A stretch of DNA of 64,000 nucleotides from positions 1,445,735-1,509,734 of the forward strand of contig OY762463.1 in the NCBI GenBank assembly GCA_963665815.1, given 5' to 3'. Positions 3,889 through 39,734 of the stretch are shown one piece after another. Source of the stretch: Candidatus Cloacimonadales bacterium (lineage in GTDB: Bacteria > Cloacimonadota > Cloacimonadia > Cloacimonadales > JAIOQZ01). Each line of letters opens with the position of its first letter. Within the stretch, counting starts at the first letter, position 1. Below the pieces are notes generated by a model that did not search any database, was not told where the DNA came from, and saw nothing but the letters and a program-made list of their open reading frames with translations. The position numbers and the translations under genes were made by a program.

Positions 3889-4788
3889 CTATGCTATCAC
3901 CCTGTCTCCATCCGAAAGCCTGTAGAAGTACACTCCGGATGCAACAGATTTGTTATTCTCGTCCTCTCCGTTCCAGATAACTTTGTTTTCTCCTTCTTCT
4001 GCTTCCAGCTCAAAGGTCTTAACTTTTTGCCCCTTTATGTTGTATATACAGATTTCCGGATCAGAAATATCTTTTGTGAGGCTGTATGATATGGACGTTG
4101 TTGGATTAAAAGGATTGGGGTAGTTGGAAAGTATGTGATTTCCTTTCAGCATTACTCTGAAATCATTATCAATATCCATACATATAGTATCAAAAAAAGT
4201 ATACTGATGACCACTTCCTCCTCTTTGAACTTTCGGAGAAAGCTCTACATCTGGTTGATTTGCCCCAAGATTATTGTGTTCATTGACAAAACTTGGACTA
4301 GATATATCATAATGGCTAATATCTTGATTCATTGCCCATACAGGAATCCCATAGTATTCGTAGCAATATTCTACAATTCCATCACATCTTATATCTGTAA
4401 CTTCGTCAGGTTGTATATAGTAGAAATTTGGGTTTGAATCATCGTAATTCAATGCATCTCCTGCAGTATAGGAGATATCAGTGAAATCCAAAAGGTCTTC
4501 AGCAAAAAGGCATATTGAAGCCCTATGAGAGATGTCCATATTTGAATTATTGCAGTGACATATGTAATCTTGCCCATCTAAAAACCCACTCCAATCAACT
4601 ATTTCTACTTCACAAAAATATCCCCCAATATGCACAATTTCTGTAAGCCCTACATAAATTCCAGCATGATCCAAATTATTTAGAAAGCCACCTTCTCTAT
4701 ATACTGCATCAGCAATAGTTTCATTATCAGTTTGGCAATAAACAATAGTAAATTGTATCAGTATAAGTAATATCATCAATATTCTCAT
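3889..4788 (-). CDS. Secreted protein with a putative permuted papain-fold (NlpC/P60-like, YiiX/LRAT-type) hydrolase domain and a T9SS-type C-terminal sorting domain
   Basis: Signal peptide ending VYC|QTD. His-then-Cys order of motifs: LDHAGIYVG, then DIRCDGIVEYCYEYYG. C-terminal NYPNPFNPTTSISYSL...IYNIKGQKV...WNGEDENNKSVASGVYFYRL. Confidence 0.6.
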   Translation of the reverse strand: MRILMILLILIQFTIVYCQTDNETIADAVYREGGFLNNLDHAGIYVGLTEIVHIGGYFCEVEIVDWSGFLDGQDYICHCNNSNMDISHRASICLFAEDLLDFTDISYTAGDALNYDDSNPNFYYIQPDEVTDIRCDGIVEYCYEYYGIPVWAMNQDISHYDISSPSFVNEHNNLGANQPDVELSPKVQRGGSGHQYTFFDTICMDIDNDFRVMLKGNHILSNYPNPFNPTTSISYSLTKDISDPEICIYNIKGQKVKTFELEAEEGENKVIWNGEDENNKSVASGVYFYRLSDGDRVIA

Positions 4789-5918
4789 TTCACACCTCTT
4801 ACTTTGTAACCTCTGTGCTTAGTTAATATTTTCTTCATTGAAGCTAAGTATGATTCGTTTTCCTCTAAAAATCTCAGAACATTTTTCCCCATTTTCTGCA
4901 ATTCTTCATTGTTTGTACTATTAATCAACTTTAATATTTTTTCTTTATCATAAGGGAGTTTACCCTTCATCAAAGCAATTAACCCTTGTATTTGATAATA
5001 TTCATTACTTTTGCATTCAATCATAGCCTCAATTGTATTAATTGAGTTAAATAGATTGTATGGAAAGCTTTCTCTTGCCATTCTTGGAAACTTGTCTGCA
5101 TTTTTAAAAGCTTTCTCATATACTCCTAAGCATGCAATAACAGCTTCAGGATGATTCATATCTACAAGCTTATGTCTGATTGCTGATAAAATTTTCTGAT
5201 TTTCTGTGTTTTCACTTATCTCCATTAGTTTTCCAATGTACTTAATATCAAAATTTGGAACAAGACACATAATAGCAGATTGCAGAATTTTCTCATCATA
5301 TTCATTTGGATTGTTTAATACAGGTGCAACATAATTTTCCAAATCAGGATGTTTTGCTCTTCTGAGTTTATGAAGTAAAGATGCTGATATTTTTTTTTTG
5401 TTATTAGATTTAAGCAAATTTATAATCTCTTCAAGATTATCATTAACATTACTGTCTAACTTAGAAACAGCATATTTCCTTAGTCTCTTATCAACTTCAA
5501 CATCTTTAGCAATACTTAGAATAATATCTTGATAATCTACATATAGCCGACTGTCTTTTTTTATGAATTTCTTTGCTGTATCAATTAAAAATGCCCTGTA
5601 TTTGGGTACATATGACTTATTCTTAAGAAGCTCAAGAATAAGTTCTTTATTCTTATCATCATCCAGCTTATCATTCAACTGAACCAATACCAGCATTACT
5701 CCTGATTCAAAATTCTTCTCATCATATAATACAAGCTCGTAGGCAAATTCAAATAGTTCCTCAGCATTGAGAAAGCTCACGTATCCTTCATTATCCTTGT
5801 AATGATTAATGTGTTCCATCTTTTTGATTTTTTCCAGATCAAGGCTATATTCATTTTCTATAGAATAAATGCCTGTTATTGCAAATGTTATAATCAACAT
5901 TATCATAATTTTTTTCAT
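4785..5918 (-). CDS. Hypothetical exported alpha-helical (HEAT/ARM-like) protein, 377 aa
   Basis: Signal peptide MKKIMIMLIITFAITGIYS. The rest is helical, repeat-like and K/E/L-rich. Its stop overlaps the start of the downstream hydrolase gene by 4 nt (ATGA). Confidence 0.65.
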   Translation of the reverse strand: MKKIMIMLIITFAITGIYSIENEYSLDLEKIKKMEHINHYKDNEGYVSFLNAEELFEFAYELVLYDEKNFESGVMLVLVQLNDKLDDDKNKELILELLKNKSYVPKYRAFLIDTAKKFIKKDSRLYVDYQDIILSIAKDVEVDKRLRKYAVSKLDSNVNDNLEEIINLLKSNNKKKISASLLHKLRRAKHPDLENYVAPVLNNPNEYDEKILQSAIMCLVPNFDIKYIGKLMEISENTENQKILSAIRHKLVDMNHPEAVIACLGVYEKAFKNADKFPRMARESFPYNLFNSINTIEAMIECKSNEYYQIQGLIALMKGKLPYDKEKILKLINSTNNEELQKMGKNVLRFLEENESYLASMKKILTKHRGYKVRGVK

Positions 5919-6553
5919 TCTTTTTCCTTTTTTCTTAATTATAGTTAATTCGTTTTGCTTGTCAAATTTTACAGTTATGTTGTTAATAAATTCTTTGTTC
6001 TATCTGCCTGCTTATGGAAAATACCAGTGTTTCATACTGTACTCCTCACTTTTATGGGGTTATAAATTGCCTTTCTTGTTTTTGAAGTTGAGCTACCTTC
6101 ATTTTCTTTAAGTGACTATAAAAAGATACTTTCTCATAAACTGACTAGTTGATGAAATTAGGAAATTTCATCGAATCCGATTAGAATAAAGCAGTATCAA
6201 TCTATTAGCAAATACATTAAATATCCCTTCATTTTCTTTGAATATCCAAAGTAAACGAAGCAAAAGAAATGACATCTTTATCAAAAAGTATTTACAGCAA
6301 GCTGTAACCGTAAATCTTCCCTAAAATCCTTCCAAGGCTTCAGGATTTCTTAACGGAAAAATTTACTATACAATGATAAAGAAACATGATGCAGAAATTT
6401 CTTGATTAGAGGGCATTTTAATAAGGTATCCGGTTTTTGAAATTCACACACAAATGCTGTTAAGCGTTACCAATTCTACATTATCGGGTATTTTCCACCC
6501 ACACATCAAAATAACAATGCAATTGTTAATAGGGTTTCAGGAATTTGTCAATA
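5919..6553. repeat. Modular intergenic repeat, copy 3 (modules A-B-C-unique-D-E)
   Basis: See copies 1 and 2. Module F is absent and is replaced by the permease terminator. Confidence 0.9.
5938..5965 (-). promoter_or_regulatory. Sigma-70-type promoter for the 377-aa gene (inside repeat module A)
   Basis: Read on the minus strand: TTGACA (5965-5960), 16-nt spacer, TATAAT (5943-5938). A-rich AAGGAA ribosome-binding region before the ATG at 5918. Confidence 0.6.
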
Positions 6554-35800: not shown

Positions 35801-36096
35801 CAATAGAAATCTATAAAAAAACATTGAATTCCTCTAAGAGATTCGATGCAGTATTGATGGACCTTACTGTTCCTGGTGGCATGTCCGGAAAAGAAGCTGT
35901 TCAGGAGATACTTAAAATTGACCCCAATGCGCAAGTTATTGTTATAAGTGGCTATTCCCGCGATCCTATATTAGCCAATTACAGCGACTACGGTTTTGTG
36001 GGCAAACTGGTTAAACCTTTCCAGATGCAGGAGATGAAAGAAGTTCTGAATAAAGTTATTAAGAAGGATGAAATGCATCAAAATCCCCAGTTGTAA
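32848..36096 (+). CDS. Hybrid sensor histidine kinase: periplasmic solute-binding domain, TM, multiple PAS, HisKA/HATPase, receiver
   Basis: SBP_bac_3-like N-terminus (VGQTNYPPFEF...IIGDEQIV). TM near aa 275-295. PAS-like repeats. H-box GGIAHDFNNILTAING. ATPase DSGGGISQENLEKIFDPYFTTK..GLGLAIV. Receiver ILIMDDNDDVR...LMDLTVPGGMSG...KP. Confidence 0.9.
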   Translation: MTLKKTIIISLFLILIVSLNCNISLTDEEKLFLSEKQEIVFVGQTNYPPFEFINENNMYDGMIIEQIRWISTELGFKAVFTHKSFSEAQADVLSGKADVISSFFYSEKRDEDFDFTETIYDVPAIIFVKKERTDIKDIADLNNKIIAIQKGDYAEEYLNSMNVQHRVLWTDDFEEALFSVIDGTADAIIGDEQIVLYEIYKQRLTDKIKTVGSPLYIGQDCMAVKEGNTILVDILKKGIKHSKDSGVYARIYQKWLGTSLNQQSDLWGKYANTIIYISLFIICVFIIAFIWIKKLKIEVHKRTVQLSTVNEELKREIEENSKVTEKLFENEMKFRNLSEQMMNGVAVVRNNRYIWVNSTFETVTGLSRDQLIDNEHRIFRFPKNRIDSDLVKWNDIVKHHEGKTFEAEVMTRDEKIYVDISMKTITFGKESAIQIIISDITARKNAELKLIDISDKNKALLDSIPDLMFVHDIDGKIIDFNSKGNTVLLLPERDVINTDLSDLPLSNETIELVIENIREALRTGETQTVRYSFSLNSNEMYYEAKISRLNDTQALSLVRDVTQTMELLEAVEKDREFLSVTLDSIGDAVIICDTNGNILLLNKVAEDLTGFYRSECEGSNLEEVFKVVNNKTGNTIISPVRKVLDTGKIQGVQDSSILISRTGRKYSISTNAAPIVTKDGNILGVVLVFRDETQKRRIEEEASKAQKLESIGILAGGIAHDFNNILTAINGNISLARLIEDEEKKGKYLSHAEKAVEQAKKLSMQLLTFSKGGDPIRETVSIKEIIEDSAGFVLRGSKVKCNLTFQEDLKPASLDKGQFSQVIQNIVLNANQAMPDGGSIDIKASNAILSDSNDYALAGGDYVKIEIRDSGGGISQENLEKIFDPYFTTKTDGHGLGLAIVYSIIKKHHGLITFESIVGHGTIVTILLPSADKKFERIDEEPDTTPDGKGHILIMDDNDDVRAIIGSSLNYLGYTYSEADDGLAAIEIYKKTLNSSKRFDAVLMDLTVPGGMSGKEAVQEILKIDPNAQVIVISGYSRDPILANYSDYGFVGKLVKPFQMQEMKEVLNKVIKKDEMHQNPQL

Positions 36097-36139
36097 AGAA
36101 ACGAAATATTGTGTCTCTACATTGGCGATGTGAAACATC

Positions 36140-37235
36140 TCTATTAATTCTCCTCCCATAGTGTTCTCGATCTATCGAGAATACCAGAAACAAGTGGAGG
36201 AGTACTCTGCTTGTGGTGGGAGGTAGTTTATATCACAATTTGATTATGTGTTACCTATGTCCCGTTTGCACACAAAATCATTGACACGACTAATCTAATT
36301 TATGAACTCATAAACATGAAACTATGGTATAATCCCGAACTTAAAGAAAAAGCAAAGATGTTGAGAAGTAATTCAACGTTGGCAGAAGTACTTTTCTGGA
36401 ACCAGTTAAGGGACAAGAAATTATGGTATGATTTTCACCGACAGAAACCAATCGACTATTATATTGTGGATTTCTATTGCCCGAAGTTGAATCTTATAAT
36501 CGAAATTGACGATTCCGATTACAAAGATTAAAACCTTGCGAATGGTTGATAAACCTTCGCAATGGTTGCCAAGTGAAGCAGAATCTCACCATTCGCATGG
36601 TCAAAAGACCATTGCGAGGGTGGAAGAAAAAATCTTGCGTTTTTACACAGTCTGTCAGTCTATTTTGTTACCTGTGTCACGTTTGTACAAATCATTGACA
36701 AGTGTGCAAATATGACAAGAATATAAACATGAAACTATGGTATAATCCCGAACTTAAATCTTATAATCGAAATTGATGATTCCGATTACAAAGATTAAGA
36801 CCTTGCGAATGGTTGATAAACCTTCGCAATGGTTGCCAAGTGAAGCAGAACCTCACCATTCGCAAGGTCAAAAGACCATTGCGAAGGTGGAAAAAAACCT
36901 TGCGTTTTTTACACAGTTTGTCTGTCTACTTTGTTACCTATGTCCTGGGTTTGAGCATTGTATTGATACACACCCCGTCCACCTTCGGTGTCCACCCCTC
37001 TTGATAGATGGGAGTTACGACGCTCATGCGTCGATTGGGATTTATGTAGTCCTTAAATCCTGTAGATCATGGTTCATAATATTTATTGAGACAACCGTCC
37101 GGTTGCCTCTTAGCGATTGGCAGAGCTGCTGAGTATATGAACACCGTAGAGAGGTAGCATGCAACGTCTAAGGTTAGGAGACACAAAATATTGTGTCTCT
37201 ACACAGCAGGTGATGCCTTACAGTTTTTGCAGACT
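36140..37235. repeat. Composite non-coding repeat locus 1 (block X, unit U1, deleted unit U2, block Y with two GAGACA/TGTCTC hairpins)
   Basis: Near-identical to 37432-38190 block by block. U units are bounded by GTTACC(T/C)RTGTC at 36250, 36668 and 36942. U2 (36668-36941) carries an internal deletion of the DUF559 fragment (ATG at 36729, junction GAACTTAAA|TCTTATAATCG). Confidence 0.9.
36316..36531 (+). pseudogene. Truncated DUF559/Vsr-like endonuclease fragment (N-terminal ~70 codons only)
   Basis: MKLWYNPELKEKAKMLRSNSTLAEVLFWNQLRDKKLWYDFHRQKPIDYYIVDFYCPKLNLIIEIDDSDYKD*. It stops just after the IE(I/L)D motif where full-length DUF559 proteins continue for ~45 aa. No SD. It is followed by a palindromic block. 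Confidence 0.6.
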
Positions 37236-37431
37236 ATGTAAAAACGATTTATGATATGAAATTACTTTTTTGACGCAGGTTTTCCCGATTCTTCGTGACT
37301 CAACCAGCTTAAGCTACTGATAAAGATAGAGATGTATGCTCCCTGAGCGGAGTCGAAGGGGATTAGTTTTAAGTGAATGAGACGACAAAAATCAATTGCT
37401 CCCTGAGATACAAAACATTGCATTGCTAAAA

Positions 37432-38190
37432 AAATTCTCCTCCCCGTAGTGTTTCGATTTACCGAGAATACCAGAAACAAGTGGAGGAGTACTCTGCTTG
37501 TGGTGGGAGGTAATTGATATCACAATTTGATTATGTGTTACCCATATCCTCGGTTTGTGCACAAAATCATTGACACGACTAATCTAATTTATGAACTCAT
37601 AAACATGAAACTATGGTATAATCCCGAACTTAAAGAAAAAGCAAAGGTGTTGAGAAGTAATTCAACGTTGGCAGAAGTACTTTTCTGGAATCAGTTAAGG
37701 GACAAGAAATTAGGGTATGATTTTCACCGACAGAAACCAATCGACTATTATATTGTGGATTTCTATTGCCCAAAGCTGAATCTTATAATTGAAATTGACG
37801 ATTCCGATTATAAAGATTAAAACCTTGCGAATGGTTGATAAACCTTCGCAATGGTTGCCAAGTGAAGCAGAATCTCACCATTCGCAAGGTCAAAAGACCA
37901 TTGCGAAGGTGGAAGAAAAAATCTTGCGTTTTTTACACAGTCTGTCAGTCTATTTTGTTACCCATGTCCTCGGTTGATACCGAGGCTTTTGCGTCGATTG
38001 GGGATCAGGAAATCCTTGAATCCTGTATATCATGGTTCATAATATTTATTGAGACAACCGTCCGGTTGTCTCTACGCGGTTGGCAGAGCTGCTGAGTATG
38101 TGAACACCGTAGAGAGGTAGCATGCAACGTCTGAGGTTAGGAGACACAAAATATTGTGTCTCTACACAGCAGGTGATGCCTTACAGTTCT
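37432..38190. repeat. Composite non-coding repeat locus 2 (block X, unit U3, block Y')
   Basis: Same order as locus 1. U3 spans 37537-37964. Hairpins at 38051-38072 (perfect 9-bp stem, GTCC loop) and 38141-38162. Confidence 0.9.
37605..37820 (+). pseudogene. Second copy of the truncated DUF559/Vsr-like fragment
   Basis: Same 71 codons as 36316..36531 with a few substitutions (M->V, W->G). The ORF-track start at 37527 is an upstream read-in. Confidence 0.6.
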
Positions 38191-38516
38191 TCCAGACAGC
38201 AGATTGCTGACAGACAACAAACGAAAATATTTTTATATCTTGAGTTCAATAATTAAGTTGACAAATATTCTTATAACTGTATTTATTTACATGGAAATAT
38301 GTTATTAGAAGCAACTCGATGTCGAGTACTCGACTTCTCCGTTTGGTTAAAGAAGATGACTATTGCATTTCTTGTAATTAACTTGAACATTCAATTGAGC
38401 CTTAAACCAATTAAAAATGAAGGAGTTTCTATGATGAACAATACAAAAAAAGTTGAAGCATTAACGAAGTCGAGTCGCTTGTAGTAATTAATAATTATAG
38501 AGAATGAGGTGTTTTA

Positions 38517-39734
38517 GTGAATCATCAGACAATTGAATCAGCAACTGAAAAGGCAAAACATATTTATATTGATGAATTTGGGAACAATGGATTTGATTTC
38601 GAAAAGCAAGGAGTATCAACGCATTTTATTCTAACTTCAATAATTGTAAATCCTGAGGATGTGGATGAGATTAGTCAATCTTCAGAAGAAATACGAGAAG
38701 GTCTACATCTTAAGGATGAACTGAAATTTAGTAGCTTTAAAAAGAAGTTTCACAATCAGCAAATTTTCAACGAAAAATTATTAGGCATATGTAATACTCT
38801 TAAACGGCTAAATCTGCAGATAATATGCTTTGTTTTTGACAAGAGAAAGATTTTTGAAGATTCTCCTATAAGGAACTATAAAAAAACGTTTTATAAGTTC
38901 TTGAACAGTAAATTGTATGATGAACTCTGGTCAAGGTTCCAGTCCTTGAGGATTGAAGCAGACGAGCATGGCTCTAGAGATTTCATGGATGAGTTTAAAA
39001 ACTATTTCCATAAAAAGTCTGGAATTTCACAAGATGATCTTTTTTGTCCTTATGAGTTTAGATTCAGGAATAGTATAGATAGTCCTTTAGTACAATTAGC
39101 TGATTTCGTTGCAGGTTTGTTTTCTATTGGATTTGATGAGAAAGCAAAGCTTGATATTTATGAAAGCTGTTTTGCTTTGATTGAAGAAAAAGTGATTACA
39201 ATTGAGGAATGGCCTTATAGTTATGAGAAACTTATTGATAAGAAAGTTAACTTATTAAATTCATCAGAAATTAACCGCACGATTTCTGTTGGAAGTATAC
39301 GAAAATGCAGGAACTATATTTCTGATAATATTGAAAGCAATGAAGAATACTGTGTTGAAAGAATGATTGTTCTGAAAAGATTGCTTTGGGAATTCAGAAA
39401 TAACATAAAAGCAAAATACTTAACATCCAGTGATCTAATCGAGTGTATCGCCGAACAGACAGGCAAAAGGTTCACAAAACATGAGTTTATGCATTATATT
39501 ATCGGTCATCTTAGGGATTCTGAAGTTATAATTTCTAGCAGCGAACAAGGATATAAAATTCCGACAAATGAAGCTGATATATATTCATATGTAAATAGAT
39601 CATTTAGTAATATTGATCCAATGATGAATAGACTAAAAGTTTGTAGGAAAGAAATCCTTAAGCTTACAGGTGGTGAATTAGATATACTTAGCCAAGAGAA
39701 ATTTGATAATATCAGAAGGTATCTTAATTTGTAG
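38517..39734 (+). CDS. DUF3800-like protein with a C-terminal winged-helix-like extension (405 aa)
   Basis: GTG start with GAGGTG 5 nt upstream. N-terminal HIYIDEFGN and distal VQLADFVAG resemble the two conserved DUF3800 motifs (from memory). The C-terminal ~120 aa (…YKIPTNEADIYSYV…) are unassigned. Confidence 0.55.
   Translation: MNHQTIESATEKAKHIYIDEFGNNGFDFEKQGVSTHFILTSIIVNPEDVDEISQSSEEIREGLHLKDELKFSSFKKKFHNQQIFNEKLLGICNTLKRLNLQIICFVFDKRKIFEDSPIRNYKKTFYKFLNSKLYDELWSRFQSLRIEADEHGSRDFMDEFKNYFHKKSGISQDDLFCPYEFRFRNSIDSPLVQLADFVAGLFSIGFDEKAKLDIYESCFALIEEKVITIEEWPYSYEKLIDKKVNLLNSSEINRTISVGSIRKCRNYISDNIESNEEYCVERMIVLKRLLWEFRNNIKAKYLTSSDLIECIAEQTGKRFTKHEFMHYIIGHLRDSEVIISSSEQGYKIPTNEADIYSYVNRSFSNIDPMMNRLKVCRKEILKLTGGELDILSQEKFDNIRRYLNL

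Follow-up and report, generated by a model that had tools for sequence, protein, structure and literature searches.

Interleaved 13-mer repeats in a Candidatus Cloacimonadales genome: a probable inverted doublet of REP-type hairpins from a RAYT-associated family

The 13-mer blocks of the window

The DNA analyzed here is a 64,000-nt stretch of contig OY762463.1 from Candidatus Cloacimonadales bacterium (hereafter, the window). Its 2.4-kb gap between a histidine-kinase gene (ends at 36096) and a DUF3800 gene (starts at 38517) is a mosaic of segmental repeats and holds three copies of a block of four related 13-mers in the order A-B-A'-B'. An earlier note on this DNA had considered an RNA pseudoknot, a DNA hairpin with unpaired triplets or a set of protein-binding half-sites. 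We put at roughly 85% the probability that the four 13-mers are an inverted doublet of stem-loops of the repetitive extragenic palindrome (REP) type, similar to REP doublets forming hairpins (REPINs) and bacterial interspersed mosaic elements (BIMEs), that they belong to a family associated with REP-associated tyrosine transposases (RAYTs), and that the doublet was triplicated by segmental duplication.

All twelve 13-mers lie where the earlier note had placed them, as confirmed by a pattern search of the window with CCTT[GCG/CGC]AATGGT. On the + strand, A (CCTTGCGAATGGT) starts at 36534, 36801 and 37823 in copies 1, 2 and 3, respectively, and B (CCTTCGCAATGGT), offset by 20 nt, at 36554, 36821 and 37843. 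A' starts at 36588, 36855 and 37877, and B' at 36608, 36875 and 37897. Reading of the sequence bears out the order of the four and the 20-nt offsets; copies 2 and 3 are perfect, while copy 1 has one mismatch each in A' and B'. Matches to CCTTSSSAATGGT with at most one mismatch number 12 in the window, all of them within 36534–37909, against a chance expectation of 0.23, and none of 100 shuffles reached 12. The three blocks lie inside a segmental duplication (95–97% identity over 151–300 nt). The swap of GCG and CGC cores, on which the earlier note had relied, is indeed present in all three copies; however, these are recent duplicates, so its retention is expected and carries no evidential weight.

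The putative REP-type features of the window are listed below. Bit scores and E-values refer to the covariance model R1 described in the next sections. Loci from other genomes are designated by L numbers; L016 comes from the Cloacimonadales metagenome-assembled genome (MAG) LOGT_bin.0140.

37821–37856, + strand: REP hairpin 1, copy 3 (A and B); minimum free energy (MFE) fold; R1 61.6 bits, E = 2e-17; bulged T at 37832 and 37852; loop GATA at 37837–37840; GCG at 37827–37829 pairs with CGC at 37847–37849
37857–37875, no strand: spacer of the inverted doublet, copy 3, GCCAAGTGAAGCAGAATCT; conserved with L016
37876–37911, − strand: REP hairpin 2, copy 3 (A' and B'); MFE fold; R1 49.1 bits, E = 2e-13, the + strand scoring 18 bits; as read on the + strand, loop AAAA with A bulges at 37880 and 37900; core flipped (CGC/GCG type)
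37921–37928, + strand: truncated third arm, copy 3, ATCTTGCG; aligns with ACCTTGCG of the complete third hairpin in L016
36799–36834, + strand: REP hairpin 1, copy 2; R1 58.4 bits, E = 2e-16; 13-mers exact
36854–36889, − strand: REP hairpin 2, copy 2; R1 47.8 bits, E = 5.5e-13
36897–36904, + strand: truncated third arm, copy 2, a perfect ACCTTGCG by comparison with L016, then TTTTTT
36532–36567, + strand: REP hairpin 1, copy 1; R1 61.6 bits, E = 2e-17
36587–36622, − strand: REP hairpin 2, copy 1, decaying; R1 20.6 bits, E = 3.5e-4
36632–36639, + strand: truncated third arm, copy 1, ATCTTGCG; at the 1289-nt offset that applies to the rest of the unit

The decay of hairpin 2 in copy 1 consists of two substitutions, which introduce a T·T mismatch and a G·T wobble into the local stem. 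The third hairpin ends after (A)CCTTGCG in all three copies.

Local pairing of adjacent arms

The 7-nt middles of A (TTGCGAA) and B (TTCGCAA) are reverse complements of each other, and their ACC and GGT ends can pair as well. Each arm therefore pairs with its immediate neighbor, A with B and A' with B'. This is the preferred pairing scheme, and it was overlooked in the earlier note, which had set nested against pseudoknotted folds. Folding of region 37815–37945 with ViennaRNA yields two adjacent stem-loops as the MFE structure of both strands (z = −5.0 and −5.5). For the 97-nt doublet the two local hairpins amount to −40.7 kcal/mol as RNA and −25.9 kcal/mol as DNA, compared with −20.7 and −9.4 kcal/mol for the nested fold (A with B', B with A') with its 3 × 3 internal loops. 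Each of the crossing helices alone contributes about −21 kcal/mol (RNA) or about −13.5 kcal/mol (DNA).

The unit hairpin is 36 nt long and has 15 bp in three stem segments, interrupted by two staggered single-T bulges. It can be written as 5'-(A)ACC-TT-NNN-AA-T-GGT(Y)-loop-(R)ACC-TT-N'N'N'-AA-T-GGT(T)-3', where the central 3-bp core is variable while its pairing is kept; on the complementary strand the bulged T's read as A's. The extra T is found at an identical position in each arm (both read AATGGT) and is thus a direct-repeat feature, whereas the cores are inverted. It is this combination that produces two staggered bulges. Hairpin 2 is the CGC/GCG-core variant of hairpin 1 (GCG/CGC core) placed on the opposite strand, which accounts for the interleaved appearance of the 13-mers. 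Elsewhere, hairpins of the CGC type occur alone or with other partners (L047, L049, L052 and L057).

No Rfam family reached its gathering score anywhere in the window, and an E-value scan of 36000–38600 gave no match overlapping the hairpins. We also considered an attC-like integron site and rejected it on reading the sequence, which has neither GTTRRRY/RYYYAAC boxes at the hairpin ends nor a cassette array.

Covariation among homologous hairpins

GTDB species genomes were scanned with CCTTNNNAATGGN{5,12}CCTTNNNAATGG, that is, a CCTTNNNAATGG..CCTTNNNAATGG pattern with the cores left free. At least 119 loci matched, most of them in Candidatus Cloacimonadota MAGs and often on several contigs of the same MAG. 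Because the search pattern prescribed the constant parts, the invariant columns are uninformative, whereas the co-varying columns were free to differ. Alignment A1 comprises 80 distinct hairpins, none of them from the window.

Local pairing holds for 92.7% of the cells in A1, compared with 31–51% if the 3' partners are slid by one to three columns. Double, compensatory changes number 26, 22 and 17 at the three core pairs, respectively. The loop-closing pair varies (CG 51, UA 17, UG 8), as does the pair at the foot of the stem (AU 39, UG 11, CG 6, UA 6, GU 4, GC 3). None of 500 shuffles reached the observed covariation. The cores of adjacent 13-mers are fully complementary in 62 of the 80 hairpins (the chance for each being 1/64), and they include 12 types: GCG, CGC, TCA, TGA, TCG, CCG, CGG, GGC, GCC, CTG, GCA and GAA. 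An additional compensated variant, TTGCGGA with TCCGCAA, recurs in several genomes. The arm-to-arm spacing follows the loop length and ranges from ~18 to >40 nt.

The crossing relation of A with A' and of B with B', for which the earlier note had proposed a check of co-variation, was found only in the window, L016 and L011, and not in at least eight other independent doublets. Homologs with only two 13-mers (56 of 141 hairpins) also exist, as do homologs whose cores are uncompensated between A and A' and between B and B'. Measured by the criterion that the earlier note itself had set, the pseudoknot idea fails.

Dispersal and genomic context of the hairpins

Covariance model R1, built from A1, detects only six hairpins in the window, which form one cluster of three doublets. 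Elsewhere, among the matches listed, it detects 135 hairpins in 71 loci representing 38 assemblies or single loci. The family is thus dispersed over many Candidatus Cloacimonadota genomes and is mostly intergenic: 74 of 104 hairpins lie outside crude open reading frames (ORFs), although non-ORF sequence makes up only ~13% of the total. Related MAGs have at least 5–28 hairpins per genome, as counted in 8-kb pieces. Flanks of 14 nt on each side of 94 distinct hairpins display a weak AA upstream and a weak TG downstream, and one genome (CAXXOU01) has a GTACC foot. The blastn search of the element against PLSDB and INPHARED returned no plasmid or phage match, and only two pattern matches were present in the 2.9 million contigs of IMG/VR.

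Some matches carry other taxonomic labels. A MAG labeled Cytophagales, JAAFKA01 (L028, L045, L073 and L102), contains eleven members of the hairpin family, which have a GGC/GCC core, and a perfect copy is found in a contig binned as Actinomycetota (L065). The hairpin family may reach beyond Cloacimonadota, or these contigs may be mis-binned. In another MAG, CAZRXY01 (L002:3325–3564, L039, L060, L081, L101, L105 and L108), the doublet is part of a ~180–240-nt repeat, present on at least seven contigs with 80–92% identity, which is larger than the hairpins and resembles a miniature inverted-repeat transposable element (MITE).

Organization in doublets

Neighboring hairpins are inverted in 48 of 53 pairs, mostly in the (+,−) order seen in the window. 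By covariance model coordinates the gap in the window is 13 nt, the commonest value, tied with the 28 nt of the nine L013 array copies. No neighbor is present within 120 nt for 56 of 141 hairpins. The cores of the two hairpins of a doublet can be flipped relative to each other, which gives the 'crossing' relation (window, L016, L011), identical, giving the 'nested' relation (L002, L114), or unrelated (L112, L022, L005, L106, L084, L013). Complementarity within the individual hairpins mostly holds, being imperfect in several of the doublets with unrelated cores.

Region 37822–37928 of the window aligns with the hairpin triplet of L016 at 91.7% identity over 108 nt, including the spacer, and yet the flanks are unrelated. 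The shared doublet with unrelated flanks means that a multi-hairpin unit was placed at different sites in two lineages. L035 and L080 were compared as a possible orthologous empty site: they have one hairpin in common at the same position, but the remainder of the spacer has diverged too far for an insertion to be called. In L013:1408–2476, immediately downstream of a RAYT gene, about nine tandem 119-bp units, each an inverted doublet, form a BIME-like array. The cores of its units are imperfect (GAT/CTC and CGT/CCG). A CRISPR-like (clustered regularly interspaced short palindromic repeats) array was rejected here, as the 119-bp units are whole-unit tandem repeats and not repeats split by unique spacers.

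Association with RAYT transposases

To find linked proteins, we clustered all crude ORFs in hairpin-bearing loci. Clustering singled out a protein of 155–190 aa with five members, at a median distance of 55 nt from a hairpin. All five match Pfam Y1_Tnp (PF01797; E = 1e-6 to 9e-11), and each of them matches a single NCBIfam family, NF047646, REP-associated tyrosine transposase. Against the equivalog cut-off of 80 bits their NF047646 scores are 125.2 (L085), 79.9 (L023), 66.1 (L112), 41.6 (L011) and 37.7 (L013). The sole protein over the cut-off, that of L085, is from a different clade and is not flanked by a T-bulge hairpin. Neither the HUH motif MPNHYHF nor the tyrosine motif YIHxNP varies, the latter fitting the class-2 'Y---NP' signature (Quentin et al. 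2018, PMC6006769). In a PDB profile search with the five proteins the best match was 4er8, E. coli TnpA-REP (E = 2e-8), while IS200/IS605 transposases scored ~0.25. A PDB search with one RAYT sequence found nothing; 4ER8 was reached by the profile search only.

In L011, L013 and L023 the gene (4577–5146 in L023), which encodes a protein of 170–190 aa, has hairpins on both sides at a distance of 23–90 nt, and in L011 these are hairpin doublets. This layout of a cognate HUH/Y1 nuclease gene between its hairpins is the REPtron arrangement. The suggestion in the earlier note that the structure might be a single-stranded DNA (ssDNA) substrate of a Y1 transposase is therefore borne out in part: a Y1_Tnp/RAYT gene is flanked by the hairpins in related genomes, but the geometry with unpaired triplets does not apply.

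A protein-led metagenome scan with the RAYT alignment retrieved 80 loci with 34–100% identity. R1 matches adjoin the gene in L120 (the same contig as L023), L124, L133, L135, L136, L142, L146, L180 and L181, and related hairpins occur on both sides in 7 of the 69 testable protein-selected loci. The hairpins of the metagenome loci are of a bulge-less form, AACCTTGCGAAGGTT-loop-AACCTTCGCAAGGTT, located on both sides of the gene; further compensated bulge-less variants are ACCTCCCGGAGGT, ACCTTGCAAAGGT and CCCTCCCGAAGGG. When ten further homologs were checked, all ten had a hairpin of another type beside the gene, mostly the same type on both sides. In a rough neighbor-joining tree without bootstrap, the three RAYTs linked to T-bulge hairpins group together, apart from those linked to flat hairpins, which suggests that hairpin and enzyme may have co-evolved.

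Several observations concern the surroundings of these genes. In L023, repeated half-hairpins lie beside the RAYT gene at 4270–4545 and 5150–5212 (for example, ACCTTGCGAATGGTCATAGACCTTA three times and AACCATTACGGAGGTTTC three times); the runs look as if hairpins had been cut and rejoined repeatedly or had undergone internal slippage. In a Cloacimonetes single-cell genome (L112:3–470, downstream to ~550, and L121) the RAYT gene is flanked by a different hairpin, CTTTCGCAAAGTT...AACTTTGCGAAAG, and T-bulge hairpins occur 5.9 kb from it. The presence of both types in one genome indicates that at least two REP families coexist there. ORFs for GIY-YIG nucleases (~80–90 aa) are situated ~30–100 nt from REP hairpins in L011 (1568–1831) and L092 (6865–7110 and 7392–7637). 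Together with the DUF559 stub of the window (see below), they suggest that small selfish nuclease genes and REPs gather in the same intergenic spots.

Repeat setting in the window

Each doublet of the window follows a remnant (stub) of a DUF559 gene:

36316–36531 and 37605–37820: full DUF559 stubs
36729–36798: internally deleted DUF559 stub, the ORF start (36729–36758) being fused straight to the last 40 nt (36759–36798)

The stub spans positions 3–64 of the 109 in Pfam DUF559, and no C-terminal remainder comes after it. In copy 3 the stop codon (37818–37820) abuts the foot of hairpin 1. We rejected the possibility that the hairpins are a target or product of DUF559: tblastn with the stub matched the window only, never beside hairpins in 200 other loci. 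The adjacency of DUF559 and the hairpins is therefore local and incidental.

The same intergenic region contains other repeats. A GAGAC...GTCTC palindrome is present at 37178–37199, 38051–38072 and 38141–38162, with degenerate copies at 37088–37109 and 36097–36121. It is confined to this region of the window (three matches versus 0.5 expected), and the same type adjoins REP hairpins in L003 (4376–4397), L016 (6546–6568) and L066 (202–223). It may represent another family of small repeats, or else consist of terminators to which inserting REPs are attracted. A non-coding unit of 217 nt occurs twice (37018–37234 and 37981–38197, 91% identity); neither an ORF family nor an Rfam match is associated with it, and parts of it match L003 beside a REP hairpin. 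A long imperfect hairpin, CTCCTCC...GGAGGAG, at 36150–36202 and ~37437–37489 was duplicated with the repeat unit.

In nucleotide comparisons of the window with the fetched loci, the closest matches were 66% identity in a gene and 87% over 114 nt of non-coding sequence. The latter (window 6271–6383, L052:997–1110 of a Cloacimonadales MAG) has unalignable surroundings and could be another repeat or a small RNA.

Alternative explanations

In a pseudoknot, A–A' and B–B' would form crossing 14-bp helices enforced by the GCG/CGC swap. The 13-mers are indeed perfect crossing complements in the window, L016 and L011, and the energies of the two helices, prior to any pseudoknot penalty, add up to about −42 kcal/mol (RNA) or −27 kcal/mol (DNA), near those of the local fold. 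However, covariation follows the adjacent arms, most independent doublets lack the crossing relation, having identical cores in two loci and unrelated ones in six, and 56 of 141 hairpins lack a partner within 120 nt. The window copies are duplicates rather than independent cases, Rfam offers no match, and 6-nt linkers across 14-bp helices appear sterically implausible. Altogether, a pseudoknot is extremely improbable. One long nested hairpin, with its two symmetric 3 × 3 loops recognized by an ssDNA recombinase, would agree with the description of REPINs as long hairpins from two inverted REPs (PMC3116915) and with the conservation of the doublet, spacer included, as a unit between the window and L016. 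It is nevertheless a far weaker fold than the local hairpins, both as RNA and as DNA. Its internal loops are not conserved, being absent from L002 and L114 and replaced by different mismatches in L112, L022 and L005, and RAYT genes are flanked by single hairpins as well. We therefore consider this arrangement very improbable.

Alternatively, the block could hold four phased duplex sites for a dimeric DNA-binding protein, each 13-mer being a pseudo-palindrome, ACC(A)TT-NNN-AA(T)GGT, about two turns from the next. The arms are nearly self-complementary (the arm of the bulge-less relatives is ACCTTNNNAAGGT), the 20-nt spacing approximates two helical turns, and E. coli BIMEs bind IHF and gyrase. 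Yet independent half-sites, as also proposed in the earlier note, give no reason for neighboring cores to be reverse complements, as they are in 62 of 80 hairpins, or for the stem-foot and loop-closing pairs to co-vary as well. Moreover, the arm spacing is not fixed but changes with the loop, and the elements flank the gene of a single-strand-specific HUH nuclease; such duplex sites are thus a most unlikely explanation. Finally, the hairpins might act at the RNA level, as 3' stabilizers or terminators of neighboring transcripts, their tie to a transposase being historical only. As RNA the stem is stable, and E. coli REPs have such secondary roles (PMC3479197, PMC3733652). Of the 74 intergenic hairpins, 59 are bordered by genes on both sides, and 19 of these lie between convergent genes. 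Against this, the window hairpins have no T-run terminator, the sole terminator-like site in 36000–38600 being at 37968–37985, and they come after a dead gene stub. In general, hairpins are found in both orientations relative to neighboring genes, and the tight flanking of RAYT genes would be left unexplained. As the primary function this is very unlikely, although an RNA-level role can coexist with the REP/RAYT reading as a secondary one.

The REP/RAYT reading has to be weighed against several observations of its own. The cluster in the window is a single segmental duplication, and the copy number in the source genome need not be high; the per-genome counts from elsewhere (at least 5–28) are lower bounds. 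The 64-kb window has no RAYT gene, the linkage being known from related genomes. Of the four hairpin-linked RAYTs, three remain below the NF047646 cut-off. In L013 and L023 the hairpins that flank the RAYT gene are in direct orientation, whereas inverted is the usual description. Across the 94 distinct hairpins there is no conserved 5' GTAG or CGTC tag.

Proposed mechanism

E. coli TnpA-REP binds the REP hairpin as ssDNA but not the complementary inverse REP (iREP), correction of the bulge abolishes binding, and cleavage and strand transfer take place nearby (PMC3479197). By analogy with this enzyme and with IS608 TnpA, the Cloacimonadota hairpin would extrude on single-stranded DNA, and the RAYT would recognize the hairpin shape and the bulged bases on one strand only. 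It would then cut and rejoin DNA near the hairpin, so that hairpins or doublets spread. The two bulged T's could provide strand-specific recognition, the ACC/GGT and TT/AA segments might serve as contacts, and any core of 3 bp would be accepted provided that it is paired. Local pairing kept up by compensatory changes, inverted doublets, intergenic dispersal and the link to RAYT genes are observed. We infer RAYT catalysis, strand choice based on the bulges and current activity in the source genome in this way. As for the history of the window, a doublet together with the beginning of a third hairpin probably landed next to or inside the DUF559 gene remnant, and the three copies arose later by ordinary segmental duplication of the surrounding 0.27–1.3-kb unit.

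A more speculative proposal, which we regard as possible but on balance doubtful, is that these hairpins represent a distinct ancient REP class. The RAYT would select strand and substrate without a GTAG-type guide, using the invariant segments and the two staggered T bulges, which one and the same 1-nt insertion in both arms would have created, and ignoring the core. The core flip within doublets could likewise have been retained, in certain lineages, for weakening the long palindrome. If true, the bulge-less, strand-symmetric relatives at sister RAYT clades would offer a natural series for studying REP strand asymmetry and its co-evolution with RAYT specificity.

Comparison with known systems

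There is ample literature on REP, BIME and REPIN elements and on RAYTs (PMC3116915, PMC3337134, PMC3733652, PMC5581495, PMC6006769). The statement in the earlier note that no described element has this arrangement does not hold up, as inverted REP doublets are well known (PMC3116915, PMC3479197). What our results add is, on the one hand, the removal of a false lead, since the interleaved 13-mers represent no novel RNA pseudoknot and no novel type of recombination site. On the other hand, they document a REP/REPIN–RAYT system in Candidatus Cloacimonadota, a phylum known almost only from metagenomes and not mentioned in the REP/RAYT surveys compared. Its architecture is clear: invariant stem segments, two T bulges, a co-varying 3-bp core, no GTAG tag, and bulge-less relatives at sister transposase clades. 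This is of use in annotation, as such repeats break assemblies and seed spurious ORFs, and it provides a comparative case for hairpin recognition by HUH nucleases, while the general understanding is unchanged.

The subterminal hairpins of IS200/IS605 insertion sequences (IS), such as the left and right ends (LE/RE) of IS608, and those of their MITE derivatives, palindrome-associated transposable elements (PATEs), are likewise imperfect hairpins with an extrahelical T, recognized on one ssDNA strand by a Y1 HUH transposase. In L013 and L023 the coding strand carries the hairpins both before and after the gene, similar to LE and RE. However, the protein is far closer to TnpA-REP than to the IS200/IS605 TnpA structures (2e-8 versus 0.25). 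No multi-copy identical IS was seen, with one gene per sampled genome (in pieces, not whole genomes) and 38–57% identity of the RAYT gene between genomes. No TnpB was seen beside RAYT genes in the crude gene calls, among which TnpB was not specifically searched for. In addition, the hairpins far outnumber the genes and spread on their own.

The similarity to REP, BIME and REPIN systems, such as E. coli REPs with TnpA-REP (PDB 4ER8) and the REPINs of Pseudomonas fluorescens, includes a ~36-nt imperfect palindrome with stem irregularities, dispersed and mostly extragenic copies, doublets that are mainly inverted and have a short spacer, and an accumulation in clusters or arrays beside the transposase gene (REPtron). 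As in REP/RAYT systems, the protein is of the HUH/Y1 type with the class-2 'Y---NP' signature and TnpA-REP as the nearest solved structure, and the hairpin type tracks the RAYT clade. Differences concern the details of the hairpin. Unlike the GTAG/CGTC-tagged REP superfamilies (Di Nocera 2013), the Cloacimonadota hairpins lack a conserved 5' tag. Their irregularities are two staggered single-T bulges and not a mismatch bubble. In contrast to classical REPs, the central 3 bp vary freely with compensation, and conservation of the constant parts extends beyond the species, to many genomes of one phylum. As regards tag and bulges, the hairpins resemble two groups of REPs in the classification of Quentin et al. 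2018 (PMC6006769): the atypical or untagged ones, which belong to TnpA-Y1 subclasses 2.6 and 3, and those of subclass 2.2 described as 'long with bulge'. Such REPs have no GT[AG]G consensus or have bulges and still occur in REPtrons with proteins of 150–200 aa, as here. Compared by table only, the motif set NHYH ... FE ... YIH[NFS]NP matches no single row of the table in Quentin et al. 2018 (PMC6006769). The pseudoknot reading is excluded, the REP/REPIN–RAYT kind is already known, and the T-bulge family of Cloacimonadota is new to it.

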